64,000 bases of DNA, from positions 6,972-70,971 of the forward strand of contig JAZNIY010000017.1 in the NCBI GenBank assembly GCA_045577735.1. Direction: 5' to 3'. Below are positions 3,148 through 63,150 of the stretch, in pieces; position 1 is the stretch's first letter, and every line of letters starts with the position of its first letter. Origin of the DNA: Candidatus Stercoripulliclostridium sp. (GTDB lineage: Bacteria > Bacillota > Clostridia > Christensenellales > DTU072). The position numbers and the translations under genes are program-made. The notes below the pieces were generated by a model. The model worked only from the letters and a program-made list of their open reading frames with translations. It was not told the DNA's origin and made no database searches.

Positions 3148-3876
3148 TTATCTTGGGTATATTCTTCCCATAGCGCGTTTGTGTTCTGCACGTTTTTCCG
3201 CGCTATCGACCTTTTCTCTCACTTCTTTAGTGGCATCCCCCGTCAAAAGATAGGTGTCCAGCTCTTTGTAGGTTATGCCCATGTCTTGCTCGTCGGTTTG
3301 ACCTTCAAAAAGTCCTGCCGACGGTGCCTTTTCCACAATACATCTTGGGCAATCAAGGTAATATAGTAGTTCCAAAACCTCGGTAGCAGTCAAATCTCCA
3401 ATGGGATTAAAGTCGCAAGCACCATCGCCCCATTTGGTAAAGTAACCCATGGTGATTTCCGAGCGATTGCCCGTACCTGCAACAAGATATCCCTTGCGTT
3501 GTGCGTAGTTATAGAGGGTAATCATGCGAAGCCTTGGGTTTACGTTAGCGTATGCCATGGGCGTTTGGGATTCGTCCAAAGGCTCTAGTATTTTTTCAAG
3601 TGCTTCTTTTGCGGGAGTCAAGTCGGCTTCCAGCACTTTAATATCGTACTGCTCGCAAACAAGCAAACCGTGCTCGCGATCCTCCCCATAATTGCGTTTG
3701 GATTGACAAGGCATTATTATACCGGTTACATTTGGCGTTGCCATACGGCAAAGGATACCTACCAAAACGGAGTCTTTACCACCGCTCATACCAAGAACGA
3801 TGCCCTTTGCACCACTCTCTTCGAGTAGATCCTTTATCCACCTTACACGTGACATTACTATCTTCTCGTAATCCAT
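3148..3876 (-). CDS. nadE: NH3-dependent NAD+ synthetase
   Basis: 242 aa with the SGGKDS PP-loop motif. Confidence 0.85.
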   Translation of the reverse strand: MDYEKIVMSRVRWIKDLLEESGAKGIVLGMSGGKDSVLVGILCRMATPNVTGIIMPCQSKRNYGEDREHGLLVCEQYDIKVLEADLTPAKEALEKILEPLDESQTPMAYANVNPRLRMITLYNYAQRKGYLVAGTGNRSEITMGYFTKWGDGACDFNPIGDLTATEVLELLYYLDCPRCIVEKAPSAGLFEGQTDEQDMGITYKELDTYLLTGDATKEVREKVDSAEKRAEHKRAMGRIYPR

Positions 3877-3885
3877 AGTTGCTCC

Positions 3886-4560
3886 TTATATATTCTTTAT
3901 TTGCCAATCGATGGATTGCTTGCCCAACTTGGATAATATTGCGTTTGCTTTGGAAAAATGCCTGCATCCAAAGAAGCCGTTGTACGCTGACAAGGGCGAT
4001 GGATGGACGGTTTCCAATATAAAATGCTGTGGGTTGGTTATTAGTGCTTTTTTTGCGCGTGCAGGCGAGCCCCATAGCAAGAATATTACGGGGTCACTTC
4101 TGTCGTTTAACGCCTTTATGACGTTGTCGGTAACCTGCTCCCATCCCTTGCCTTTGTGCGAAAGAGGTGCGTTTTTCCTAACCGTCAGTACGGTGTTAAG
4201 AAGCAGTACGCCCTGCTTTGCCCAGTCAACGAGATAGCCGTTATTTGGTATATACGTACCCAAATCGGCGTTCAATTCCTTGTAAATGTTCATTAACGAG
4301 GGTGGGATTTTAATACCGGGCTTAACGGAAAAACACATTCCGTGCGCTTCGCCGGGATTGTGGTATGGGTCTTGTCCCAAAATCACGATTTTTACGTTTT
4401 CATAAGAGGTGGTTTTAAGCGCGTTAAAAATGTCGTGCATATCGGGATAGATTACACGATTGCGATATTCACTAATTAAAAATTCTCTTAAATTGAGATA
4501 TCCCTCCCCTTCAAAGGTGCTTTTGAGGATGACGTCCCAATCGTTTCCTAGGTTAACCAT
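3886..4560 (-). CDS. ung: Uracil-DNA glycosylase
   Basis: 224 aa with GQDPYH and HPSPLSA motifs. Confidence 0.92.
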
Positions 4561-5227: not shown

Positions 5228-5293
5228 ACGAAAATATACATACCATTGCGTAAGCAACGTAAATCAAAAAACATAGGTGGGGGGAATATTTCT

Positions 5294-5384
5294 CTTCTCT
5301 ATCCTCCCCCTATTCTACGTTACCCTACGCTTACCTACCCTCCCCTATACTATCCTTATCTCTACTCCCCTTACCTATACTATC
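5294..5384. repeat. G-depleted tract of pentamer-periodic CTNNN (+) / NNNAG (-) units
   Basis: 14 of 15 consecutive pentamers in 5310-5384 start with CT. Three more follow after a 1-nt phase slip (5294-5308). Only 2 G occur in 5291-5395. Confidence 0.8.
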
Positions 5385-5416
5385 CTGGGGCGCAAAAAGT
5401 ACGTCTTTAGGACAAC

Positions 5417-5449
5417 TTTTTTGCGTCTTTTTTGCGTCTTTTTTGCGTA
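5417..5449. repeat. Three tandem copies of the 11-bp unit TTTTTTGCGTC
   Basis: Read directly as ttttttgcgtc ttttttgcgtc ttttttgcgta. Confidence 0.9.
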
Positions 5450-5639
5450 GTTTTGTACACGTTTTTGATTTATTATATCTTGCAAAAATGGTAATATTCT
5501 TGCCTTTTCCTTGACTTTTTAAGCAAAACATATTAGTTTTTCAGTTGACAAATTTTTATTCAAAATGCTTAAGTTTTTTCATTTTGTCAAACATTTTTAG
5601 AACGTCTTTCGTTCAAGTTGCAAACAAGGATTTATTTAA

Positions 5640-5730
5640 GTGCGGAATGCGGAGCAACGCTTGCGCGAGTGCGGAGTGCGGAGCGCGGAACAGCCTTACG
5701 GAGTGCGGAGTGCGGAATGCGGAACGCGGA
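5640..5730. repeat. Heptamer repeat block (NNGCGGA), 10 GGA motifs
   Basis: gtgcgga/atgcgga/gcgcgga/acgcgga units interrupted by gcaacgcttgcgcga and acagccttacgga. Blocks of 41 nt and 27 nt are identical to locus 48781-48855. Confidence 0.9.
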
Positions 5731-5863
5731 ACGACCTCATTTCGCTTACGCTTCACTCACAAGGATAGATTTTTGTTTATGGTTTCCTCTTACTTTTCCT
5801 AGACAGGTCGCCAAAAAACCTTATTATTCAGTTTGAGTTTACTCGCACCAGTTTTAGAATACG

Positions 5864-5990
5864 GTAGACTTCGTTTTTTGGATGAGATACGAACAAAAGA
5901 AAATCTCCCAAGGGGAGTGTACTAAGGCGTACATGACCCGAAGGGAGACTTTTAGTTTTGTGAAGTAGGTCGCCAAAAAACAAAGTCTAC
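5864..5990. repeat. Long-hairpin intergenic repeat unit A1 (127 nt; terminal-stem type 2, core type I)
   Basis: Arms GTAGACTTCGTTTTTTGG and CCAAAAAACAAAGTCTAC are complementary with one mismatch. The apical hairpin is homologous to units at 49301 and 57941. Confidence 0.85.
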
Positions 5991-6532
5991 TTTAAGTTTT
6001 TGGTAATACGCTCCACATACGGCACACTCCAATGATATCCCCAAAGTAGTAATGCATCGTATATAATGAATACGGCAACGAAAAGAAGGTTTAAAAGGAA
6101 ATAAAGGAGTCCTTTGTTCTCCATGGATATATTGAGGGCACTAAAGTTAACGAAGAAAATATCGGTAAGATAGTAAAGGACAAAGAATACGAAACAAGCA
6201 TAAACTACCTTTATGGGGTAGGATATAAACCACTTGATCTTGTCTTTGTGGTCATCTATAACAATGGTAACAATGGTATAGAAACCACCTACCAAAACAA
6301 AGGGTAAAATATGAATATTAGCAAAAATACCGCCAAGCGCACAAACAGCTACGTAAGACAATATTGCTTCACGATAGTATTTTTGCGTAAGCGGTAGCAT
6401 TATCCCAACCGAGGCGAGTAAGTTAAAAGACATACTCAAGTTGGGAATATAGAATGATAAAATTATTGCAACAAGCGATATCGCCGAAGATATTCCGGCA
6501 AGCGCTATTCTCTTTGATGAAAATCTCTTCAC
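5987..6532 (-). CDS. Multi-pass membrane protein, unknown function
   Basis: 181 aa with about 5 hydrophobic segments. It is the last gene of the trpS-DUF5685-J-like operon. Confidence 0.6.
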   Translation of the reverse strand: MKRFSSKRIALAGISSAISLVAIILSFYIPNLSMSFNLLASVGIMLPLTQKYYREAILSYVAVCALGGIFANIHILPFVLVGGFYTIVTIVIDDHKDKIKWFISYPIKVVYACFVFFVLYYLTDIFFVNFSALNISMENKGLLYFLLNLLFVAVFIIYDALLLWGYHWSVPYVERITKNLK

Positions 6533-47977: not shown

Positions 47978-48583
47978 TTAATTAATGCTATTAGTCTCGT
48001 TCGTGGTTACATGGTTTACAGAAAATCTTGTTTTCTTTAAATGTATATATCCATTTGATTTCTCATAAAACACAAATTCAAACCAAGCTCCATTCATAAA
48101 ACTAAACTTAAGTAGTAGTTTACCAGCGTCGTATAAAAACAATTCTTTTGGTAATACCAAAATTTTAGTGGGCTCACCAAACACTTTACGGTCTTTTTCA
48201 TTATACTGAATTGGTGGATACTCGTCCATATAAAACTCTTCTATAACAAACAAGCATTCCATTTCTTCAAAATACGACTCCCGAGCGATTTCCGCAAGAT
48301 CTTCATCGCCACCTGGGTGTGAACTAACATATAACCCAGCCTCTTGATGAGATGGTACCGGATATTCATCTCTTGTTAAATTACTGCCATAATATAATTC
48401 AATAGTAACGTCTTCATCCAATCCAAACGTCATATGTTCATCGTTTATAGTATAACAAAACTGATAATAACGCTTTATAATCTCTTTTGAGCTTTGCCCA
48501 TCATTGTTAATACAACCAACCATAGAAAAAAGTAAAATTAACAACATTAAGCTATTTATTACAAGTAAACATATCTTCTTCAT
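47978..48583 (-). CDS. Lipoprotein, unknown function
   Basis: Signal peptide plus lipobox MVGC. I placed the start at the ATG after a GAGGTG RBS. Confidence 0.6.
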   Translation of the reverse strand: MKKICLLVINSLMLLILLFSMVGCINNDGQSSKEIIKRYYQFCYTINDEHMTFGLDEDVTIELYYGSNLTRDEYPVPSHQEAGLYVSSHPGGDEDLAEIARESYFEEMECLFVIEEFYMDEYPPIQYNEKDRKVFGEPTKILVLPKELFLYDAGKLLLKFSFMNGAWFEFVFYEKSNGYIHLKKTRFSVNHVTTNETNSIN

Positions 48584-48739
48584 TTTTAACACCTCATATT
48601 ATATGGACAATATTGCAAGCCCTAAATGACCAAATTTTGGAATTTTTTTACTTTATATTTACTTATATTAAACATAAAACAAAAGAAAATAACAAATTTC
48701 CTTACTTTTTAACTAATTCTCATATGTTTCCCCACCATT

Positions 48740-48768
48740 AATATACCACCCATCCCCCACCATGTCAA
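48740..48768 (-). promoter_or_regulatory. Candidate promoter for the lipoprotein gene
   Basis: TTGACA, a G-rich 17-nt spacer, then TATATT on the minus strand. Confidence 0.5.
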
Positions 48769-48780
48769 CCCCGAACCTTC

Positions 48781-48855
48781 GTGAGCGCGGAACAGCCTTA
48801 CGGAGTGCGGAGCAACGCTTGCGCGAGTGCGGAGTGCGGAGCGCGGAGTGAGGAA
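48781..48855. repeat. Heptamer repeat block (NNGCGGA), 7 GGA motifs
   Basis: Contains 27-nt and 41-nt blocks identical to 5683-5709 and 5649-5689, in the opposite order. Confidence 0.9.
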
Positions 48856-48919
48856 CGGCTTCACTACGCGTTGCTACGTTCACAAGGAAAAGTTTGAATT
48901 TGTTCTCACCATTGACTAG

Positions 48920-49050
48920 CCTCTTAAAACGCGTTAGTTTGGATGCTAGTCGAAGGAAAATAAAAAAGTTGAGGGGTTGCTGTACTGACGTACTGCGCCC
49001 CGATAACTTCTTTTACTTTTTCAAAGAATAGTGCTAAAATAACGTGTTTT
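48920..49050. repeat. Long-hairpin unit B1 (131 nt; terminal type 1, core type II)
   Basis: Arms AAAACGCGTTAGTTTGG and CTAAAATAACGTGTTTT. Core GGGG-UU-GCUGUAC-UGAC-GUACUGC-G-CCCC. Confidence 0.85.
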
Positions 49051-49063
49051 TACTAGTGTTAGA

Positions 49064-49194
49064 CCTCTAATAAACTTTGGTTTTTAGATGCTAGACAAGA
49101 AAAAGTGAAAAACCGAAAGGTTGCTGTACTAGCGTACTGCTCCTTGAGATTTTTTTGCTATTGACGCAGTATAGCGCTAAAAAACAAAGTCTAT
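49064..49194. repeat. Long-hairpin unit B2 (131 nt; terminal type 2, core type II)
   Basis: Arms ATAAACTTTGGTTTTTAG and CTAAAAAACAAAGTCTAT. The core has an AAGG/CCUU outer stem. Confidence 0.8.
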
Positions 49195-49300
49195 CCCAAG
49201 GGGTTGCTGTAGTAGCAAGTACTGCGCCCTGACGGGGTTTTGGTTTTAACATAGGATAGCACTAAAATGCGCGGTGGGTTGTTCTATTGTTATTGTGGCA
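49195..49300. repeat. Truncated unit B3 (core type II; alternative right junction GCGCGGTGGGTTG)
   Basis: The core is homologous to B1 and B2. The right end CTAAAATGCGCGGTGGGTTGT is identical to 57903-57923. Confidence 0.7.
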
Positions 49301-49431
49301 CCTCTTAAAACGCGTTAGTTTAGATGAAGAACGAGCAAAAAGAAATCCCTCCGACGGGAGTTTACTTTGCGTAAATGACCGAGGAGGGATTTTGTCTTTT
49401 GTGAAGTTATTCGCTAAAATAACGCGTTTTA
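49301..49431. repeat. Long-hairpin unit B4 (131 nt; terminal type 1, core type I)
   Basis: 126 of 131 nt are identical to 57941-58071. Its last bases overlap the dhaK stop codon. Confidence 0.9.
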
Positions 49432-51228
49432 AATTCTTTTGCAGAGCTCCGTAAATATTACTCCCAACCCATAAGCACCGGCATCGGGGTAGTTAAGGCT
49501 ATCGGTAACACCTGCACGACCGAGTTTTGCTTGGATATACTTGGTCTTTTCGGCACCGTCTACTGCTGCGGAAGCTGCTTTTGCCATTGCATCGAGGAGT
49601 GCTTCGCCTGCTACTGCACTTGCGGAGAGGCTGTCTGCTGCGGGAACAAGAGCATCAATTAGAGTCTTGTCGCCAACTACTGCGCCGTGACCAAAGCTCT
49701 TTTCACCGGTGTCTTGAACACCCTTAACTGCTGCTTGGAGAATGTCTGCTAGACCTTGAAGATCAACTTCGTCTTTACCAAGGGCTGTCTTACCTGCCCA
49801 ACGGAATGCGCTTCCCCAAATAGGACCACTTGCACCACCACAGTATTCCATGATGATTTCGGAACAAGATACTAGGAATTCGCCTACGTTACCCTTCTTT
49901 CTGGTAGCCCAATCTGCCTTTAATTGCTTGAAGCCCTTTGCAATACTCATGCCAAAGTCACCATCGCCACAACGGTCTGCTTTACAGAAAGCAACTTCGT
50001 TTTCGATGATGATATCAGCCATGGTTTCTACGATTTTGCCCATTCCTGCAGTATTGATTTTTTCGCCGATAACTGCTTCACCTACGAATTCACATACTGC
50101 GTTTTCTTCTTCAACAGCTTCTTCTACTGCTACGTCTTCTTCAACTGCCTTGGGAGTAAATGCTCCGGGAGTAATGTTTAGTGCCTTTGCAAGTGCTTGT
50201 ACTGCTTCTTTGCAAGCAAGTGCTTCTGCATCAACAGCGCCCCAAGTAATAGCGGGAGTGGATACTGCGTAATCAAGGAGTCCCTTGAGTTCAGCATCAA
50301 CGCGAAGGAGGGTTACACTTGCACCAGCCATATCGATGGAGGTCATGTAGTTGCCAACCATGGTCTTGTATACCTTGATGCCCTTTGCTTCAAGTTCGTT
50401 GGTTACGTCATTGTTGAATAGGTATAGTTCTTGAAGGGGTGAACCACCAAAACCATTTATGAGAAGTGCGATTTCTTCGCCGGCTTTAAGGCCGAGATCT
50501 TCAATAAGGTCTGGGATAATTCTTTCTGCAAGAGCCTTGGAAGATTGTAGTTTTTCTCTCTTTCTTCCGGGTTCGCCGTGGATGCCTACGCCGAATTCCA
50601 TTTCGTCTTCACCAATTTCGAAGGTGGGGCTTCCTGCTGCGGGAACGGTACAAGAAGTTAGTGCGAAACCAAAGCTTCTTACGTTATCGATAACCTTTTG
50701 TGCTACTGCCTTAACTTCTTGGAGTGAGCCACCTTGTTCTGCCTTAGCACCGGCAATCTTGTGTACGAATACGGTACCTGCAACGCCACGACGGCCTACG
50801 GTATATAGGGAGTCTTTAACTGCGATATCGTCGTTTACGTATACGGCATCAACTTCTACACCATCTTCTTTTGCAAGAGCTGCAGCGTTGTTGAAGTTCA
50901 TGCAGTCACCGGAATAGTTCTTAACGATCATAAGGGTACCTTTCTTGGATGCGGTAAGCTTAAGTGCGTTATAAACTTGAATTTGTGAGGGAGATGCAAA
51001 TACGTCACCACATACTGCACAGTCCAACATACCCTTGCCTACAAAACCAGCGTGTGCAGGTTCGTGACCAGATCCACCACCGGAAATAAGGGTAACTTTG
51101 TTCTTGTCGATAACTTTCTTTTTAACAACTTTATATTTTTCTACAAATTCAAGTTCCGGATGTGCCTTTGCTAGGCCGTGACACATATCGTATACGAAAC
51201 TTTCAGCAGTATTCATTATTTTCTTCAT
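49429..51228 (-). CDS. Fused DhaK-DhaL dihydroxyacetone kinase
   Basis: 599 aa. Dak1 motif GGGSGHEPAH, an acidic linker, then a Dak2 domain. Confidence 0.88.
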   Translation of the reverse strand: MKKIMNTAESFVYDMCHGLAKAHPELEFVEKYKVVKKKVIDKNKVTLISGGGSGHEPAHAGFVGKGMLDCAVCGDVFASPSQIQVYNALKLTASKKGTLMIVKNYSGDCMNFNNAAALAKEDGVEVDAVYVNDDIAVKDSLYTVGRRGVAGTVFVHKIAGAKAEQGGSLQEVKAVAQKVIDNVRSFGFALTSCTVPAAGSPTFEIGEDEMEFGVGIHGEPGRKREKLQSSKALAERIIPDLIEDLGLKAGEEIALLINGFGGSPLQELYLFNNDVTNELEAKGIKVYKTMVGNYMTSIDMAGASVTLLRVDAELKGLLDYAVSTPAITWGAVDAEALACKEAVQALAKALNITPGAFTPKAVEEDVAVEEAVEEENAVCEFVGEAVIGEKINTAGMGKIVETMADIIIENEVAFCKADRCGDGDFGMSIAKGFKQLKADWATRKKGNVGEFLVSCSEIIMEYCGGASGPIWGSAFRWAGKTALGKDEVDLQGLADILQAAVKGVQDTGEKSFGHGAVVGDKTLIDALVPAADSLSASAVAGEALLDAMAKAASAAVDGAEKTKYIQAKLGRAGVTDSLNYPDAGAYGLGVIFTELCKRI

Positions 51229-56160: not shown

Positions 56161-56952
56161 TTAACGTTTTTTATTCTTAGCCTTTGTTGGTAACTCATAG
56201 GCGTTATGATAACAAAATGCAAAAAATATGGTAAGAATAATTGATATAATTGCACTATATAGCAGTAAAATCGTATTGGGACTAATTTCAATATGCCCTA
56301 CAATATTTTCGTTTAGTCCACCGAAATTTAATCCTGCGATTTGTAACATATAGGTTAACTCTACTTCCAACCAAACGACCTCGACAACCAAACTAGCTAC
56401 GAACAGCAATAGAAAAAGCATTGTAACAGAGCCTATTGCAATGAGTGATTTCTTAATCTTCGAAATTCCGGTATTATAAAACCAGCGTGCAGTAGAAGCG
56501 TTTATGCCAGTTATAAGGGATATTTCATTAAAAGTATAATTTCCTAACACTTTTAAGGTTATAATCTTTTTGCGTTTTTCATCCAGTCCTATTAGCATTT
56601 CGTCAAACCCATCGACGTTAGCATAGTTACATATGCTATTTTTATTGCACAAGCTTTCAATATCGCTGGGAAGAACGATCTTTTTATCCTTTCTGATAAC
56701 GTCAATAGTTGCATTTTTTATTACTTTAGTCAGCCAAGATATTTCATTGTCTTCGGGTAATTTGTCCACTTCCATACTCATCAGCTTTAATATTACGTTG
56801 TGCACCACGTCCTCGCTTTTGTAGTGGTCCTTGCAGACCATAAAAGCAATAGCATAAAGCTTATTGTATTGTGAAGAATAAAGCAACTCGATCCCCCTAT
56901 TGCGATCCTTACGAATTAAATCGAATATTTGCTTCATTTCCTTATTGCTCAT
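56161..56952 (-). CDS. ECF-type sigma-70 family factor fused to two C-terminal TM helices
   Basis: Region 2 (DVVHNVILKL) and region 4 (NEISLITGINASTARWFYNTGISKIKK), followed by hydrophobic segments. The ATG follows a GGAAGG RBS. Confidence 0.7.
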   Translation of the reverse strand: MSNKEMKQIFDLIRKDRNRGIELLYSSQYNKLYAIAFMVCKDHYKSEDVVHNVILKLMSMEVDKLPEDNEISWLTKVIKNATIDVIRKDKKIVLPSDIESLCNKNSICNYANVDGFDEMLIGLDEKRKKIITLKVLGNYTFNEISLITGINASTARWFYNTGISKIKKSLIAIGSVTMLFLLLFVASLVVEVVWLEVELTYMLQIAGLNFGGLNENIVGHIEISPNTILLLYSAIISIILTIFFAFCYHNAYELPTKAKNKKR

Positions 56953-56973
56953 TCGCACCTTCCAACGTCAATA

Positions 56974-57633
56974 CTATAACTCGACAAATGCACCTAAAAG
57001 TTTTTCTGCTACACCGAGTGCTTTTTCGTATTTGTACTCGTAATCAACAGCCAGGCTATCGTCAATCAAAAACTCCATTTCGATAGAATAATCTTTAGTA
57101 TGATGCCTAACTAGTATATTATAACCCACTCTTGAATCCTTACTTCCCACACTTTCCACCTTGCATTTTCTATCCAATATCCTAACGTTTTCCGAAAAAT
57201 AATCGGAAAATCCTTTGTAGGTTTCTTTTCGCATCGTTAAACTCGGTTTTATCCCGACAAACAAAAAAGCACTTCTTTTTAACGGCGTAGCTACCTTTAT
57301 ATTTATTCTGCTATACAGCTCACCCTCAATTATAGCATTCGCGTAATAAGAATATTGCTCCGTCTTTTTAATGTCCTCTCCCTCTTTATAGTAGCTTATA
57401 GCATGAAAACTTTCATCATAGTCAACTATTACTCTAGAACTGTTAACGTAACAACCAACACCATCTATTAAGTTTAGAAAGCTACCTTCATCGCACTCAA
57501 CTTGTTGTTTTAATAGAGTCCTTTCTTCCTTTGAATAGGCCGTCATTTCCACGCACCAAACACCCAAAATAATACCCAAAATCAACAATATGATTAAAGA
57601 TACAAATATTACGTATTTAATACTTTTGATCAT
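56974..57633 (-). CDS. Membrane-anchored protein, unknown function
   Basis: 219 aa with an N-terminal TM. It lies immediately upstream of the sigma gene and is probably co-transcribed with it. Confidence 0.55.
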   Translation of the reverse strand: MIKSIKYVIFVSLIILLILGIILGVWCVEMTAYSKEERTLLKQQVECDEGSFLNLIDGVGCYVNSSRVIVDYDESFHAISYYKEGEDIKKTEQYSYYANAIIEGELYSRINIKVATPLKRSAFLFVGIKPSLTMRKETYKGFSDYFSENVRILDRKCKVESVGSKDSRVGYNILVRHHTKDYSIEMEFLIDDSLAVDYEYKYEKALGVAEKLLGAFVEL

Positions 57634-57788
57634 AAGGACTCCTTTTTAGTTTTCCATCTAATTATATAAACGCACAAGACGTAGTAAATTGTTGGTGCTA
57701 TTATTCAATTTTTAATAATTTCGTTCACAAGGAAAATGTCTATGATACAAGAGTGGTCTAACCTGCACAAAAAAAACAACGAGTACTC

Positions 57789-57940
57789 GCGAATAAAACG
57801 CGCTAGTTTGGATGCTCCCCGACGCAAAATTAAAAACTCTCACGACGGGACTTTACTAAGGGTAAACGACCGAGGGAGGCTCTTGTTTTGTGATGTTGTT
57901 CGCTAAAATGCGCGGTGGGTTGTAGTTGGTTTATGTATTG
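57789..57940. repeat. Long-hairpin unit C1 (degenerate core type I; alternative right junction)
   Basis: Left arm AAAACGCGCTAGTTTGG. The right end CGCTAAAATGCGCGGTGGGTTGT matches that of B3. Confidence 0.75.
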
Positions 57941-58071
57941 CCTCTTAAAACGCGTTAGTTTAGATGAAGAACAAGCAAAAAGAAATCCCTCCGACGGGAG
58001 TTTACTTGGCGTAAATGACCGAGGAGGGGTTTTGTCTTTTGTGAAGTTGTTCGCTAAAATAACGTGTTTTA
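57941..58071. repeat. Long-hairpin unit C2 (131 nt; terminal type 1, core type I)
   Basis: 126 of 131 nt are identical to 49301-49431. Confidence 0.9.
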
Positions 58072-58230
58072 CCATTCTTTGGCCCCATCATGCTTCACAT
58101 CATCATAAAACTCGAAATACTTGCGTTTCTGCTCTGCAAGCGCTCTTTCTCTTGCGCGCTTTTTTGCGAGCTCTTCCTTGGTTAATACCTTTTTAGGAGT
58201 TGTAGTGGTGGTTGTCTTTTTTTCTTCCAT
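58069..58230 (-). CDS. Possible small Lys/Glu-rich protein (53 aa)
   Basis: MEEKKTTTTTTPKKVLTKEELAKKRARERALAEQKRKYFEFYDDVKHDGAKEW. It lies 2 nt downstream of the yhbY stop, and its own stop codon lies inside repeat unit C2. Confidence 0.35.
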   Translation of the reverse strand: MEEKKTTTTTTPKKVLTKEELAKKRARERALAEQKRKYFEFYDDVKHDGAKEW

Positions 58231-60353: not shown

Positions 60354-60541
60354 TTCCCGTAGGGAATTGCGACAACTAAATAAATCCTTACGGATTTGTG
60401 ATATTCGTCTAACGACGAGTGATATTGCCTTACGGCAGTGATATTCGCCTACGGCGAGTTATGGATTTATTTAATATCACTTTGGCGTAGCCAAAATATA
60501 ACTGCTTGTAAAACAAGCAATACAACTTTTTGCCACAAGGC
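60354..60541. repeat. Array of eight mini-hairpins, including three tandem GTGATAT-plus-hairpin units
   Basis: Stems are ttccc/gggaa, aatcc/ggatt, tcgtc/gacga, tgcc/ggca, tcgcc/ggcga, ttggc/gccaa, tgcttg/caagca and gcc/ggc. Loops are GTA, TTAC, TAAC or TAC. Confidence 0.8.
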
Positions 60542-60690: not shown

Positions 60691-63150
60691 CTAACTCTTT
60701 ATTAATTGTATAACAGTATAGTCAGTATATTCAAAGTAATACTCGCTTTCTTGAAAAACCAGTTCGAAACAGATGATATCTCCGCCTTCCGGGTTGGAAT
60801 AGCTAATAATTCCATTTTCTTTCAAAATCACACTCTCCTTTTTTGTTGTTTCACACTCTTTTATATGAAAATCATCAACAAACACAACCAAGCTCTCAAG
60901 AATTTCGACTTTTAAATTATTATGCCAATTGTTATCTACTTTGCCCTCCACAGGAACAATAAATTGTCTTAGGTCTATTTCAAGTTGAGATTGACCATCT
61001 ACAAATTCAAAGGTTTGCAGTGATGAAATACTGAATTTTGGTGTTTTTTTGATATTAAACATAAAACTTTCGTAGTTTTTGGTATCCGAATATTCAAACG
61101 TACAATATTCATTGGGTTCAAAATATGCGATAATATATTTTCCAAGCACTTCCTTTTCCATATTCTCGGAAGCGATTGTATCATCAATATAACTAATATC
61201 CTCTGGATTTGTTTTAGTATATAGTATTCCTTTATCTTTTATTTTAGCTATTAAATCTTCATCAAGATTTTCCATATCGACAATTTTCTCCTCTTTTTCG
61301 AGTTCATATAGATATAATTTACAGTGTTCCAAATTCATATTTTCAATATGGAAATCTAACAAATACCCAGGATATAATGGAGCATCGATAAATTCAACGT
61401 CTATTATCTCACTGCCCCTATAAGGATATGGAGCACTTACTTCCGCATGTATTTCATACCCATAAGAGTATGAATCACCTATAAAAACATTATTTTGTAC
61501 AAAACAAATATTTATATTATCTAGTAAGCTAATCGTCAGAGCGTAAGCACCATAAGTAGATGGCAATTCTAGCCCCTCTATTCCCGTATAATCAACCGAG
61601 TACAAACGAGCGTCGCAGTCCAAAGCGTTTGAAATGCCAGAAACAAAATCGTTTTGTTCCTCACTTGAAAGGCCTTCCGGTTGCTCTTCTATAATATATG
61701 TAAGGTTTGGAACCATTTCTTCACTCAAATTAATTGCGTATTTGTTTAGCGTCATTTCATATTGGAACGTTGCTTCGTGGTTTGAATATCCCTTCAAATT
61801 CTCCAAAGCATCACTGCCCAGCTTCTTTTTGTCAATCGTTAGGAACAATGGCGATTTTACAAAAACACCTTCCTCAAATTCTGCCAACCTTGTATATTCA
61901 ACAAATACTATTTCTTCAGAAGGTATTTCTTCCGTAAGCGAGCCTTTCTTGTACCATTTTTCGTCCCTATAGTCTACTTCGTGGTATTCCTCCCCAACTT
62001 TGTGAGCTTGAACGTTTATTACAAAGTTTTGTAATGACAAAAGTGATTGTTGTTGCCACGTGTTATTTGAAAAATACTTCAAAGACATATATTTGCTAGC
62101 ATCTTCCTTTTCAATTAACGGTACACCAACGGCCTGTACTAACGGCACAACTACGCCCTCTTCCCCTTCGACCATTAGGTCTTTGTATTGGATGCACTCA
62201 AGGAGGTACCTGGGAGATAGTGAGGAACTATTTGCTAAAAACATCTTTTCAATATCAAAAGTTGCAAAAGTGTTAGTTCCGTATGTAAGTTCATTTGCCG
62301 TAATTTCAATTTTTATAGGATTGGAATATTGTACGGCATAAAAATCGGTTGCTTCAATTTGTGCTAATGCCAAATATCTTCCAGGAGCAAGGTAGTTACC
62401 CGCGTTAGACATAAACTTAAATTGCGCGCCATTGTATGAGCCAACTTGATTTTGTAGTACGTATTCATACTTGTTTTCTGCTAGTTCATAACCCCTATCG
62501 TCTTTAATTATGGGATAGGATATTACTCTACCCTCCAAGTCACTTGTTGATTTGGTTAGCAAACAAAAAGCTTTCCCTTCAAAAATAGATTGTGCGTGCT
62601 CTATTTTGTAATACTCTTGCCCAGCCTCCAACTCAACGTCTACTATTGAAGACTCTCCCGCTTCCCCTATTTTTCCAACCGAAAGAGTTATGGGCTCCCC
62701 TGCACCTTTCTTAATTTCTATCATCAGGTCTTGAGTGAGGTCGCCATAAGAAGCCGTAAAGGTTAATTTGTAGGAACCAGCTGTACTTTCCGCACTTTCA
62801 CCATTTTTTAAAAATGCAAAAAAGTTGTTAACTTCCTCATACTTTCCACTCTCGTTTTTTGCATAGGGCTTGCAAGTGTATTGCTCTTTGTCAAGTAACT
62901 TTTTCGTACCATTGGAATAGGTATAGTAAACCTTGACGTCGTCTAAAGTGAAGGCCTCCTCGTTTCCATCTATTTTATCAAGCGCAAACGTGTAAAAATT
63001 GGGATTCGTGCAGTCCTTTACGTAAACGTCTATCCCGGTAATTGTAACCTTTATATTTTCAGCTTTTTTCGAAGTACACGCATTAAGCCCAAAAACACAA
63101 ATTAATACAAAGAGCGCTATGACTAATACTATCAAAAATCTTTTTTTCAT
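60691..63150 (-). CDS. Large lipoprotein, unknown function
   Basis: 819 aa with a signal peptide and lipobox LNAC. I recognised no catalytic motif. Confidence 0.6.
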   Translation of the reverse strand: MKKRFLIVLVIALFVLICVFGLNACTSKKAENIKVTITGIDVYVKDCTNPNFYTFALDKIDGNEEAFTLDDVKVYYTYSNGTKKLLDKEQYTCKPYAKNESGKYEEVNNFFAFLKNGESAESTAGSYKLTFTASYGDLTQDLMIEIKKGAGEPITLSVGKIGEAGESSIVDVELEAGQEYYKIEHAQSIFEGKAFCLLTKSTSDLEGRVISYPIIKDDRGYELAENKYEYVLQNQVGSYNGAQFKFMSNAGNYLAPGRYLALAQIEATDFYAVQYSNPIKIEITANELTYGTNTFATFDIEKMFLANSSSLSPRYLLECIQYKDLMVEGEEGVVVPLVQAVGVPLIEKEDASKYMSLKYFSNNTWQQQSLLSLQNFVINVQAHKVGEEYHEVDYRDEKWYKKGSLTEEIPSEEIVFVEYTRLAEFEEGVFVKSPLFLTIDKKKLGSDALENLKGYSNHEATFQYEMTLNKYAINLSEEMVPNLTYIIEEQPEGLSSEEQNDFVSGISNALDCDARLYSVDYTGIEGLELPSTYGAYALTISLLDNINICFVQNNVFIGDSYSYGYEIHAEVSAPYPYRGSEIIDVEFIDAPLYPGYLLDFHIENMNLEHCKLYLYELEKEEKIVDMENLDEDLIAKIKDKGILYTKTNPEDISYIDDTIASENMEKEVLGKYIIAYFEPNEYCTFEYSDTKNYESFMFNIKKTPKFSISSLQTFEFVDGQSQLEIDLRQFIVPVEGKVDNNWHNNLKVEILESLVVFVDDFHIKECETTKKESVILKENGIISYSNPEGGDIICFELVFQESEYYFEYTDYTVIQLIKS

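Follow-up and report, generated by a model that had tools for sequence, protein, structure and literature searches.

Organisation of the arrays

The 64-kb stretch of DNA analysed here (‘the window’) is shown by Pfam to be housekeeping chromosome, and it matches MAGs of uncultured gut Clostridia (Ca. Stercoripulliclostridium); a phage origin, considered on account of its AT-rich look and a Gut-1 match, was rejected. A covariance-model search locates six full units of an intergenic palindromic repeat, all on the + strand and distributed over three arrays (Table 1), accompanied by one 3′ half-unit and one remnant on the same strand. Successive units are spaced 13–110 nt apart, always in direct orientation. 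The unit of array 1 overlaps the TAG stop of a minus-strand gene (5987–6532; stop-codon offset +1), whose 181-aa product returned no record in an exact-protein look-up; its base stem, GTAGACTT../..AAGTCTAC, covaries. At the end of array 2, nucleotides 49429–49431 (TTA) of unit 3 are the TAA stop of a minus-strand dihydroxyacetone kinase gene (49429–51228; Pfam Dak1/Dak2; offset 0), and the last three nucleotides of array 3 likewise supply a TAA stop, here to a 53-codon ORF on the minus strand, which comes after a YhbY-like gene. The repeat also creates spurious ORFs, for example at 57830–58075.

Table 1. Arrays, units and associated features (window positions; bit scores from model R1, unit bounds from the covariance model)
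Feature	Position	Strand	Details
GC-rich heptamer repeats (TGCGGAG/CGCGGAA type), leader side of array 1	5639–5740	+	module recurs at 48769–48864
Remnant: CCTCT, then a piece of the unit 3′ arm (..AGGTCGCCAAAAAAC..)	5787–5830 (approx.)	+	by reading
Array 1	5864–5990	+	one full unit
Full unit, array 1	5864–5990	+	116 bits; fold −59.5 kcal/mol
Sigma-70-type promoter, TTGACA-17-TATATT	48740–48768	−	11/12 matches
GC-rich heptamer repeats, array 2 leader	48769–48864	+	repeat number differs among strains
Conserved leader motif TTCACAAGGAAAAG..CCATTGACTAG, then CCTCT linker	48879–48924	+	recurrence
Array 2	48925–49431	+	three full units and 3′ half-unit
Unit 1, tip type A (GGGGTTGCTGTAC..GTACTGCGCCCC)	48925–49051	+	87 bits; fold z-score −6.5
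Linker ACTAGTGTTAGACCTCTA	49052–49069	+	same linker in L001/L055 arrays
Unit 2, tip type A, base stem ATAAACTTTGG../..CAAAGTCTAT	49070–49194	+	82 bits
3′ half-unit: tip type A and 3′ arm, alternative closing sequence TGCGCGGTGGGTTG	49195–49282	+	by reading
Linker ..TTCTATTGTTATTGTGGCACCTCT	49283–49305	+	by reading, strain loci
Unit 3, tip type B (CCGACGGGAGTTTAC..GTAAATGACCGAGG)	49306–49431	+	141 bits
Array 3 leader (TTCACAAGGAAAATGTCTATGATA.. motif, without heptamers)	57724–57793	+	motif recurrence
Array 3	57794–58071	+	two full units
Unit, tip type B, alternative short closing stem (..CGCGC/GCGCG..)	57794–57924	+	61 bits
Unit, tip type B	57946–58071	+	138 bits

The four units listed in an earlier note on this DNA are present where it placed them and each is introduced by CCTCT; its list was incomplete, missing the full units at 5864–5990 and 57794–57924 as well as the half-unit and the remnant. 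The exact length of 131 nt that it gave does not hold for the hairpin itself: the folding element measures 125–127 nt in those four units (125–131 nt for the core hairpin overall), the figure of 131 being reached by counting the 5-nt CCTCT linker. The start at CCTCT is likewise a choice of boundary. CCTCT is one of several junction types and is missing from two further units; the flanks at the hairpin foot vary (CCTCT, GCGAA, GCACT and others), and TA..TA bounds every unit of the window's genus.

The leader motif of array 2 recurs at 5745–5790 and 57724–57745 and at four related loci (L001, L037, L043 and L059), and the promoter just past that leader serves the next minus-strand gene (47978–48592). 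Another strain has a remnant of the same type as that of array 1 at its DAK locus (L008), and half-units like that of array 2 occur in L005–L007, there with an IS3-type element inserted in or beside them.

The similarity of the units is not due to chance: a 23-nt degenerate 3′-arm motif occurs four times against an expectation of 0.01, model E-values run from 1e-11 to 1e-27, and the stretches 49301–49431 and 57941–58071 are 96% identical. Tandem Repeats Finder did not report the array, because the inner parts of the units differ.

Fold, strand bias and the apical module

Each of the four originally listed units folds as one long hairpin, as the earlier note had proposed, and the 17–18-nt pairing arms it described resolve into a perfect 12-bp outer stem, one G·A mismatch and a 5-bp stem. 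The folding check that it recommended gave z-scores of −3.0 to −8.7 for RNA and −4.3 to −9.7 for ssDNA; the unit at 57794–57924 is on its own a poor hairpin with either set of parameters.

Pairing is maintained by compensatory changes, and the fold under selection lies on one strand only. Double compensatory changes are seen at 22 of 40 pairs in the genus alignment and at 22 of 27 in the cross-taxon alignment; in the latter, 87.7% of cells are paired versus 64.7% in shuffles (reached by 0 of 500) and 27–42% in slid controls. RNA folding finds the + strand more stable in all 44 of 44 units of the genus (with 157 G·U pairs and 4 A·C 1x1 mismatches on that strand) and in 112 of 120 elements of the wider family (472 G·U, 28 A·C); ssDNA parameters give a preference in the same direction. 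A mutation bias as the source of the G·U excess was rejected by reasoning alone: a C-to-T bias on the sense/leading strand predicts the opposite asymmetry.

The folded strand is marked by G·U/G·T wobbles, a tandem G·A, a bulged A and purine-rich internal loops, with a near-invariant G·U by the tip, beside the tandem G·A, that is kept in 37 of 39 cases. This apical module—C-GA-CGG-GA-G, a 5–6-bp stem with a 4–7-nt loop, then U-GA-CCG-A-G—is found again at 120 or more metagenome loci with a GC content of 38–71%, where the hairpins have a median length of 131 nt and often follow the stop-codon context rule described below. It amounts to a 30-nt motif conserved across phyla, from AT-rich to GC-rich gut bacteria; between classes the tip is conserved and the termini differ. 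One-strand folding, a stop codon at the unit end and a widely conserved apical module are three distinguishing features that the earlier note had missed.

Gene context and the stop-codon junction

In 49 of 52 arrays the neighbouring gene on the 3′ side is encoded by the opposite strand. Of the 45 distinct gene-proximal units, 42 have the end of an opposite-strand ORF no more than 30 nt away, and in 32 of those 42 the stop codon starts at offset 0 or −1, that is, in the unit's own terminal TAAAAC; the stops are TAA (35), TAG (6) and TGA (1). For the gene whose stop the unit abuts or supplies (..nnn TAA AAC GCG..), the folded strand is the template (antisense) strand. Convergent gene pairs carry one unit each, in opposite orientation and within about 600 nt of each other (L037, L011, L017). 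Because these units are opposed, we conclude that polarity is tied to the gene and not to replication; a replication-strand cause, for which a GC-skew correlation of 54:8 spoke, was rejected on the same ground. The sites follow core housekeeping genes scattered along the chromosome, the neighbours at 120 metagenome loci are diverse housekeeping genes, and no neighbour gene recurs among the loci examined.

A hairpin on the template strand, positioned at a stop codon, recalls the attC sites of integrons. These sites (Vibrio cholerae repeats, for example) are imperfect palindromes of about 57–141 nt that are recombined as the folded template strand, often overlap a stop codon and form strain-variable arrays. 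The units might be attC-like sites of an integron-like system, each a bottom-strand hairpin placed after a cassette ORF and acted on by a tyrosine recombinase; size, template-strand polarity, position on or at the stop, ends that read ..AAC/GTT.. and the strain-variable genes that border the arrays all agree with this. We nonetheless consider it very improbable. The ORFs that the sites follow are scattered core genes, several sites follow one another in tandem without an intervening ORF, and the variable genes beside array 3 have no unit of their own. Conservation at the tip and variability at the base is the reverse of the attC pattern, the unit ends TAAAAC/GTTTTA share only AAC/GTT with the R''(RYYYAAC)/R'(GTTRRRY) consensus, and the window encodes no integrase.

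Copy number, strain variability and the search for a mobilising enzyme

Counting copies, as the earlier note had advised, revealed many more than those of the window. The degenerate 3′-arm motif matched 44 genome loci, of which about 40 belong to 7 MAGs of Ca. Stercoripulliclostridium/Clostridia, and the covariance model returned 134 matches over both strands, corresponding to about 80 positions in 46 related loci; near-identical units occupy at least 8 loci of one MAG. Many repeat matches lie at contig ends. In four DNA metagenomes the k-mer depth of the unit is 10–20x that of flanking genes, with a peak of about 95x, an excess suggestive of some tens to about 100 copies in each genome.

The unit varies from strain to strain; in related taxa, sites that are otherwise identical exist with and without it. 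The arrays differ among ten contigs that encode an identical DAK protein, as they do among strains at the YhbY locus, and IS3-type elements are inserted within the arrays of some strains, much as IS elements insert into REPs. Empty alleles are seen at L086, and two clean filled/empty pairs, L180/L074 and L085/L116, both from a distant class, show A/T-rich 5-bp direct repeats (ATAAT, AATTT) and 6-bp inverted ends (GAGACC/GGTCTC). Over 101 elements there is no consistent target duplication, the longest direct repeat averaging 4.75 nt versus 4.38 nt in controls; in the window's genus, the check for target-site duplications that the earlier note had suggested demonstrates nothing beyond a trivial TA..TA, which is not separable from the palindrome itself.

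The statement that the window holds no transposase or RAYT-like gene is borne out: none of its roughly 57 ORFs has a transposase, reverse transcriptase, integrase or RAYT domain. Around the 120 metagenome loci there is no recurrent transposase, reverse transcriptase or integrase. Rfam 15, searched at gathering and E-value thresholds with the window and 12 related loci, places nothing on the units (best sub-threshold E=0.54); phage, viral-contig and plasmid collections hold no match to them, and neither those collections nor 1.3 Mb of related loci yielded a full-length IS with the unit's ends. A literature search by genus name, keywords and sequence words found no description of the repeat. The note's remark that no described family matches agrees with these results, and the possibility it left open, that the units are fragments of a known IS, finds no IS, phage or plasmid similarity in its favour.

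These data bear on whether the units are ordinary MITEs of a double-strand (DDE) transposon—a TA-targeting IS630/Tc1-like element, say, or one of a 5-bp-duplicating family—with arms that are inverted copies of one IS end and a gene-end position that results from A/T-rich targeting plus purifying selection. Size and copy number are typical, TA..TA bounds every unit of the genus, and the two clean insertions of the related class display 5-bp A/T-rich direct repeats and 6-bp inverted termini. Yet arms paired by mere descent decay symmetrically, whereas the ratios of 157:4 and 472:28, along with compensatory changes over the whole stem, reveal that pairing is selected on one strand; at 41% GC the genome has TA and A/T-rich sites everywhere, yet 32 of 42 stops fall at offset 0 or −1; it is the tip, not the termini, that is conserved between classes; and no parent IS appeared in the collections or related loci searched. 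We regard this explanation as unlikely.

A terminator-like core

The inner module consists of an A-tract, a GC stem and a T-tract, and so has terminator form on both strands; a simple scan flags some of the units. The mean energy of the tip hairpins is −23 kcal/mol for the + strand and −21 kcal/mol for the minus strand, and the T-rich tails hold 5.7 T (+) and 7.3 T (gene-sense) per 12 nt. That the units are mere long bidirectional intrinsic terminators, alike by function and not members of a repeat family, would suit this core and their location directly after genes, and most palindromic candidates from the human microbiome are indeed predicted terminators (PMC8040213). This idea is scarcely credible, however, being already contradicted by copy identity (96% at unrelated genes) and by the insertion polymorphisms; outer stems of 12–17 bp lie outside the terminator, and the cross-phylum 30-nt motif, the depth excess and the presence/absence alleles likewise speak against it.

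Promoter scans found no sigma-70 promoter above background before the hairpin; weak matches (TTGACT-17-TAGTTT and TTGTCT-17-TAAAAT) were dismissed, not being conserved among units. An SD-like role for CCTCT (AGAGG on the gene strand) was also rejected as a general feature: in the wider family, an SD-like motif accompanies only 5 of 29 close downstream starts. Four gut metatranscriptomes (unstranded Logan contigs) contain array sequence, with an array-to-gene depth of about 5–10x in RNA contigs versus 10–20x in DNA, contig depth being a crude measure. Because the RNA ratio does not exceed that of DNA, the unit is not an abundant RNA per copy.

The units might instead be a structured non-coding RNA domain that acts on the + strand, for example by binding protein or as an antisense RNA convergent with the neighbouring gene, with spread secondary: an RNA gene carried by various vehicles, or one that is SINE-like and retro-mobile. 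Several features recommend this. The near-invariant G·U by the tandem G·A, the purine-rich loops and the G·U excess are hallmarks of functional RNA; the tip is kept from 38 to 71% GC though the termini differ; polarity follows gene direction, which RNA is able to sense, and might also result from target-primed reverse transcription; and the array sequence does appear in metatranscriptomes. On the other side stand the hairpin's lack of an upstream promoter, linkers of 13–20 nt that are too short for separate promoters, an inner terminator that would stop the transcript before the 3′ arm, and RNA depth ratios no higher than those of DNA; there is, moreover, no Rfam match and no reverse transcriptase was seen. 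On balance we find this a possible but doubtful account.

Relation to known repeats

The class proposed in the earlier note—MITE-, REP/BIME- or Correia-like—is right in general terms, the element being an intergenic palindromic repeat. REPs, known from enterobacteria and pseudomonads, measure 20–40 nt and are tagged at their foot by GTAG or CGTC. The likeness to REP/BIME (REPIN-RAYT; PMC3733652) extends to high-copy extragenic palindromes located 3′ of genes, mosaic arrays with linker motifs, hairpins thought to act as strand-specific ssDNA, hot spots of IS insertion and effects on termination and mRNA ends. Here, in contrast, the hairpin is 125–131 nt long with a conserved tip, variable flanks and no foot tag; units stand in direct tandem whereas REP copies are inverted or alternating; a stop codon is built into the unit, and a RAYT is absent from the window's ORFs.

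Modular, stably folding intergenic repeats of about 100–200 nt are known from other Firmicutes: bcr1 of the Bacillus cereus group and BOX, RUP and SPRITE of Streptococcus pneumoniae. Of these, bcr1 has been reported with a 5-bp A/T-rich duplication (TTTAT) as well as with G-U pairs that show compensatory changes elsewhere in the fold. To our knowledge, all four are confined to a genus or species group and none is locked to stop codons with one polarity; the apical module here, by comparison, spans taxa of 38–71% GC, the families being set apart on the basis of their descriptions. Correia/NEMIS (Neisseria), ERIC/IRU (enterobacteria) and EFAR (Enterococcus faecalis) resemble our units as whole-length imperfect palindromes of about 100–170 bp, with different sequences. 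Correia elements have TA-type targets, and Correia, ERIC and EFAR often lie near ORF ends, are co-transcribed and alter transcript ends; in none of them are we aware of a strict stop-codon junction, a wobble excess on one strand or a core shared across phyla.

PATEs of the IS200/IS605 type possess two short subterminal hairpins on one strand and, 5′ of the left end, a conserved target tetra- or pentanucleotide; our units instead form a single hairpin over their whole length, and their 5′ flank is not conserved, the lack of a clear duplication being compatible, as none is expected for a PATE. The terminal inverted repeats of a MITE are present trivially, the whole unit being palindromic (TAAAACGCGTTA../..TAACGCGTTTTA). 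Lastly, Fremin & Bhatt 2021 (PMC8040213) reported palindromic candidate structured RNAs from the human microbiome, including HMP2_4205 (132 bp; Bacteroidetes). Candidates of this type are similarly palindromic, about 130 bp long, from gut bacteria and predicted to be terminator-like; the paper contains no stop-codon rule, strand asymmetry or mobility, and words from the unit motif were not found in the 200 supplementary files searched for it.

Discussion

Taken together, we read the units as a non-autonomous, high-copy REP/BIME/MITE-like element that is mobilised in trans, handled as a single strand and equipped with a terminator-like core; a reading we hold with about even confidence. The element would be moved or copied via a strand-specific single-stranded intermediate, preferably by an ssDNA route akin to that of REP/RAYT, IS200/IS605 or attC sites, with an RNA/cDNA alternative that would also fit. 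The near-invariant apical module may be the docking site of a putative mobilising protein, and insertion would target the A/T-rich extreme 3′ end of ORFs. Arrays could then be built by repeated insertion at one place, combined with recombination and hairpin-driven deletion between copies. Judging by its sequence, each unit is also predicted to be a two-way intrinsic terminator, ending the transcript of the upstream gene and insulating the next promoter.

Three observations pull against this trans-mobilised, single-strand reading. The 5-bp repeats and short ends of the two clean insertions look like the work of a double-strand cut-and-paste transposase, which needs no single-strand step; conservation of an internal tip, not of the termini, is unusual for REPs or MITEs and suits an RNA that is functional in itself; and the well-folding strand is not one that would be exposed by transcription of the abutting gene or by lagging-strand replication. 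The reading is further weakened because the searches above returned no mobilising enzyme, consistent duplication or hairpin promoter. We also propose, rather tentatively, a broader form: the hairpin would be the core common to an undescribed cross-phylum class that acts through a strand-specific single-stranded intermediate (SINE-like cDNA/RNA or nuclease-cut ssDNA) and homes to stop codons, the invariant apical G·A/G·U module serving as the handle for a conserved protein.

Small structured repeats (REP, BOX and Correia among them) influence where transcripts end, how stable mRNAs are and how genomes rearrange. The present family is readily testable, given that the stop codon is also the element's end, that the polarity is fixed, that the fold is strongly one-stranded and that a 30-nt motif is conserved; a partner protein, if found, could point to a novel mechanism of DNA mobilisation or to a novel RNA–protein module. 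The repeat also breaks metagenome assemblies, and marks hot spots of IS insertion and of gene-content change.

Hairpin units and their copy number

Inspecting the sequence, we see that the units described in the earlier note at 48920-49431 and 57941-58071 are indeed present; a covariance model built on 23 diverse unit copies puts the number of full units in the 64-kb window at exactly six, all on the + strand and with their reverse strands scoring ~90 bits lower. The folding element is 125-131 nt in length, the previous value of ‘exactly 131 nt’ arising because CCTCT had been counted in; this word recurs as a linker, as do ACTAGTGTTAGACCTCT and TGCGCGGTGGGTTG..CCTCT, plus TTTCTCGCGAA in other strains. 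The inner part of the hairpin is of two types: GGGGTTGCTGTAC..GTACTGCGCCCC (tip A) and CCGACGGGAGTTTAC..GTAAATGACCGAGG (tip B). Five of the six units form the single long hairpin attributed to them, both as RNA and as ssDNA (z-scores for window units down to -8.8 and -9.7, respectively); the exception, 57794-57924, folds poorly in isolation.

Hairpin units, abutting genes and filled/empty pairs
Feature	Position	Strand	Comment
Full unit	5864-5990	+	covariance model
Full unit	48925-49051	+	covariance model
Full unit	49070-49194	+	covariance model
Full unit	49306-49431	+	covariance model
Full unit	57794-57924	+	covariance model; shorter alternative closing stem
Full unit	57946-58071	+	covariance model
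3′ half-unit	49195-49282		read from sequence
Unit remnant	near 5787-5830		read from sequence
Dihydroxyacetone kinase gene	stop at 49429-31		stop at unit end
53-codon ORF after YhbY-like gene	stop at 58069-71		stop at unit end
Gene	5987-6532		stop at unit end
Filled/empty pair	L180 6469-6584		versus L074
Filled/empty pair	L085 12448-12568		versus L116

A reverse-complemented unit has one reading frame open along its entire length, and two ORFs, 81 and 93 codons long, span units at 57830-58075 (-) and 57915-58196 (+); both are presumably artefacts and a possible trap for gene callers.

The ~57 ORFs of the window are ordinary chromosomal genes, including PFOR, dihydroxyacetone kinase, Fe-ADH, RF-1, a TrpRS/TyrRS-class synthetase, ribosomal proteins S9 and L13, a MurC-like ligase and a two-component system. 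None has a transposase, reverse transcriptase, integrase or HUH domain, in line with the earlier statement that the window lacks a transposase or RAYT-like gene. As an explanation for the units, an attC-like site fits less well than a mobile element handled as a single strand, and we consider it very improbable.

Further copies do exist beyond the window. With one genome taken per species, a degenerate 23-nt 3′-arm motif matches 44 loci, ~40 of them in seven MAGs from sheep, goat and other gut samples, named Candidatus Stercoripulliclostridium (Eubacteriales incertae sedis in the NCBI taxonomy) or ‘Clostridia bacterium’; the covariance model places ~80 unit positions over 46 loci, many at contig ends, and near-identical units occupy at least eight loci within one MAG. 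In four DNA metagenomes unit k-mers are 10-20x deeper than flanking single-copy genes (peak depth 1245 versus ~13), which points to tens to ~100 copies per genome, a depth to which related species may contribute.

Elsewhere in the window, a match to Gut-1 RNA (RF01706; 60373-60449, +; 58.5 bits against a gathering score of 50) shares bases with a 19-nt tandem repeat (60398-60459) and lies upstream of where an 819-aa ORF (60691-63150) ends; Gut-1 is an orphan motif that is not known outside gut metagenomes, and its host chromosome here matches Ca. Stercoripulliclostridium MAGs. An odd, low-complexity C/T-rich stretch at 5300-5450 (..CCCCCTATTCTACGTTACCCTACG..), followed by three exact copies of CTTTTTTGCGT at 5416-5448, lies upstream of a minus-strand gene with its end at 5274.

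Probable selection on the fold of one strand

RNAalifold predicts 40 pairs from 23 copies, 22 of which have changes on both sides. All 44 motif-selected units fold more stably as + strand RNA, and ssDNA parameters favour that strand too; across 40 closed hairpins we count 157 G·U pairs on this strand and only four A·C 1x1 mismatches, equivalent to G·U on the other. The U25·G121 wobble is fixed (23/23 copies) and adjoins an invariant bulged A (..TTTRG-A-TG..). Because known mutation biases (C-to-T changes in the sense or leading strand) should produce the reverse of this asymmetry, we infer that it reflects selection on the + strand fold.

Position and polarity relative to genes

Using our own ORF calls, we find the 3′-side gene to be opposite in strand to the unit at 49 of 52 arrays, the 5′-side gene lying on either strand (17 versus 17). 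For 42 of 45 distinct gene-proximal units an opposite-strand ORF (at least 60 codons) ends within 30 nt; in 32 of these 42 the stop codon begins at unit offset 0 or -1, the gene reading ..nnn TAA AAC GCG.. across the junction. Over all 42, the stop is TAA 35 times, TAG 6 times and TGA once. The strand that folds is thus the one from which the abutted gene is transcribed, and the mRNA of that gene would carry the mismatched complement.

Unit polarity also correlates with GC skew (54:8), the + strand of the window having negative skew. The replication fork is ruled out as its source by three loci (L037, L011 and L017) at which convergent genes each have their own unit, in opposite orientations and within ~600 nt; polarity therefore follows the gene.

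A wider family across gut bacteria

In five sequencing runs (X25-X28 and X10), contigs of depth 65-150 match only the 33-nt tip at 49351-49384 and continue into unrelated GC-rich sequence, a first hint that further abundant members of the community have the tip motif. Searching metagenomes for the tip-B motif, GACGGGASYKTAC-N4-7-GTAMRYGACYGA, finds at least 120 loci with GC of 38 to 71%; the gut samples behind those listed include human, chicken and rodent ones. In every match listed, the motif occupies the tip of a long hairpin, with a median span of 131 nt; the + strand folds more stably in 112 of these 120 elements, and G·U wobbles outnumber A·C by 472 to 28. Where an ORF was called on the 3′ side of the listed elements, it runs on the opposite strand about two times in three, mostly at 33-63 nt from the tip, and an opposite-strand stop falls in or beside the hairpin base in 44 of 83 elements. 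The listed loci adjoin diverse housekeeping genes (guaA, queA, tpiA and others) and share no recurrent mobility gene; their flanks hold extra copies, tandem or after successive genes (160 matches in 938 kb).

Aligning 39 sequences across taxa yields 27 consensus pairs, of which 22 carry compensatory changes; the fraction of cells paired is 87.7%, versus 64.7% in shuffles (0/500 attain the observed value) and 27-42% in slid controls. The apical core, C-GA-CGG-GA-G / U-GA-CCG-A-G, is nearly invariant, and 37 of the 39 sequences have G·U within it. This motif conservation is the strongest support for the main rival explanation, in which the hairpin functions as + strand RNA and which we regard as possible but doubtful; its weakest point is that no promoter was found upstream of the hairpin and there is no sign of abundant RNA, arrays being present in (unstranded) metatranscriptome contigs at an array-to-gene depth ratio no higher than in DNA.

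No Rfam family matches the units, nor does anything in the phage, viral and plasmid collections, and literature searches by name, keyword or sequence word returned no description of them; a human-microbiome screen reports 250 palindromic candidates, one of which, 132 bp long and from Bacteroidetes, might be the same element (PMC8040213).

Empty alleles and strain variation

Empty alleles were found in three cases in the wider family. At L086, the gene end of the empty allele reads ..AAT GTA GGC TAA AAAA.., and that of the filled one ..AAT GTA G[TT TGA AAAAC..element..]TAAAAAAC. Two filled/empty pairs (flanks 93-100% identical) come from the class of 42-46% GC, in which the mobile unit is a ~175-nt composite of a GAGACC(G)..(C)GGTCTC hairpin, a terminator hairpin and the 131-nt hairpin; GGTCTC/GAGACC is also the BsaI-type recognition word, perhaps by coincidence. 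The composite is bounded by 5-bp direct repeats (ATAAT, AATTT) and enters the last codons or stop codon of a gene, recreating the stop: one insertion changes the C-terminus from ..ALIMR* to ..ALIMRPP*, the other splits a TAA that is rebuilt as TGA. Across 101 elements, direct repeats show no general excess.

Ten contigs encode an identical 599-aa kinase beside differing arrays, which hold between one and four units, some with tips exchanged on identical base stems, and which include half-units and deletions inside the array. In four of these (L005, L006, L007 and L009) an IS3-type element (HTH_21, rve, rve_3) has entered the array, at three different points and twice at or near a unit tip, resembling the targeting of REP loops by IS1397 and ISKpn1. 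Array make-up likewise varies at the YhbY locus, where a 219-aa ORF and a sigma-70-like 265-aa gene (56161-57633) are present in some strains; among L055-L059, the array runs directly into the czcD terminator where they are absent, and in another strain MFS and KduI genes replace them. The arrays therefore mark borders of strain-variable DNA. One gene that abuts a unit has an ortholog in another species that is followed by a plain terminator in its place (L054 versus L019).

GC-rich heptamer repeats (TGCGGAG/CGCGGAA), strain-dependent in number, lie 5′ of two arrays at 5639-5740 and 48769-48864; in other species (L017, L011, L030, L048, L054) CTCCGCA, TTCTGCA or ATCATTC heptamers directly abut the unit 5′ end, sometimes oppositely oriented. 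The heptamers look like a second repeat class found at the same sites.

A predicted terminator role and the nature of the element

The middle of the unit consists of an A-tract, a GC-rich stem and a T-tract; mean tip hairpin energies are -23 (+ strand) and -21 kcal/mol (minus), and the 12 nt that follow the stem contain 5.7 T when read on the + strand, 7.3 when read on the gene-sense strand. Such a layout matches a two-way intrinsic terminator, lying here between a stop codon and the promoter that comes next (TTGACA-17-TATATT at 48768-48740), and is predicted to act as one. Termination does not require the outer 17-30 bp of pairing. A reading of the units as mere terminators fits less well and seems to us the least probable.

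The L073 element (3831-3940) is wedged between two tightly coupled operon genes, as seen against L099/L086; the empty alleles have SD..ATG between them, the filled one a new AAGGAG 8 nt ahead of the downstream start. In GC-rich hosts, therefore, the element need not terminate transcription.

With the REP/BIME/MITE kind these units share small size, palindromy, high copy number, mosaic structure, location 3′ of genes, polymorphism and a proneness to IS insertion. They differ from the families known to us in having a stop codon built into the unit end, with one fixed polarity, a fold selected on the strand antisense to the abutted gene, and a cross-phylum conserved part that is an internal, RNA-motif-like apical module, not the termini. 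A plain DDE-type MITE fits less well than an element mobilised in trans, and we judge it unlikely. The reading we favour, with middling confidence, is that this is a selfish element, mobilised in trans and handled as a single strand, which may act locally as a terminator.
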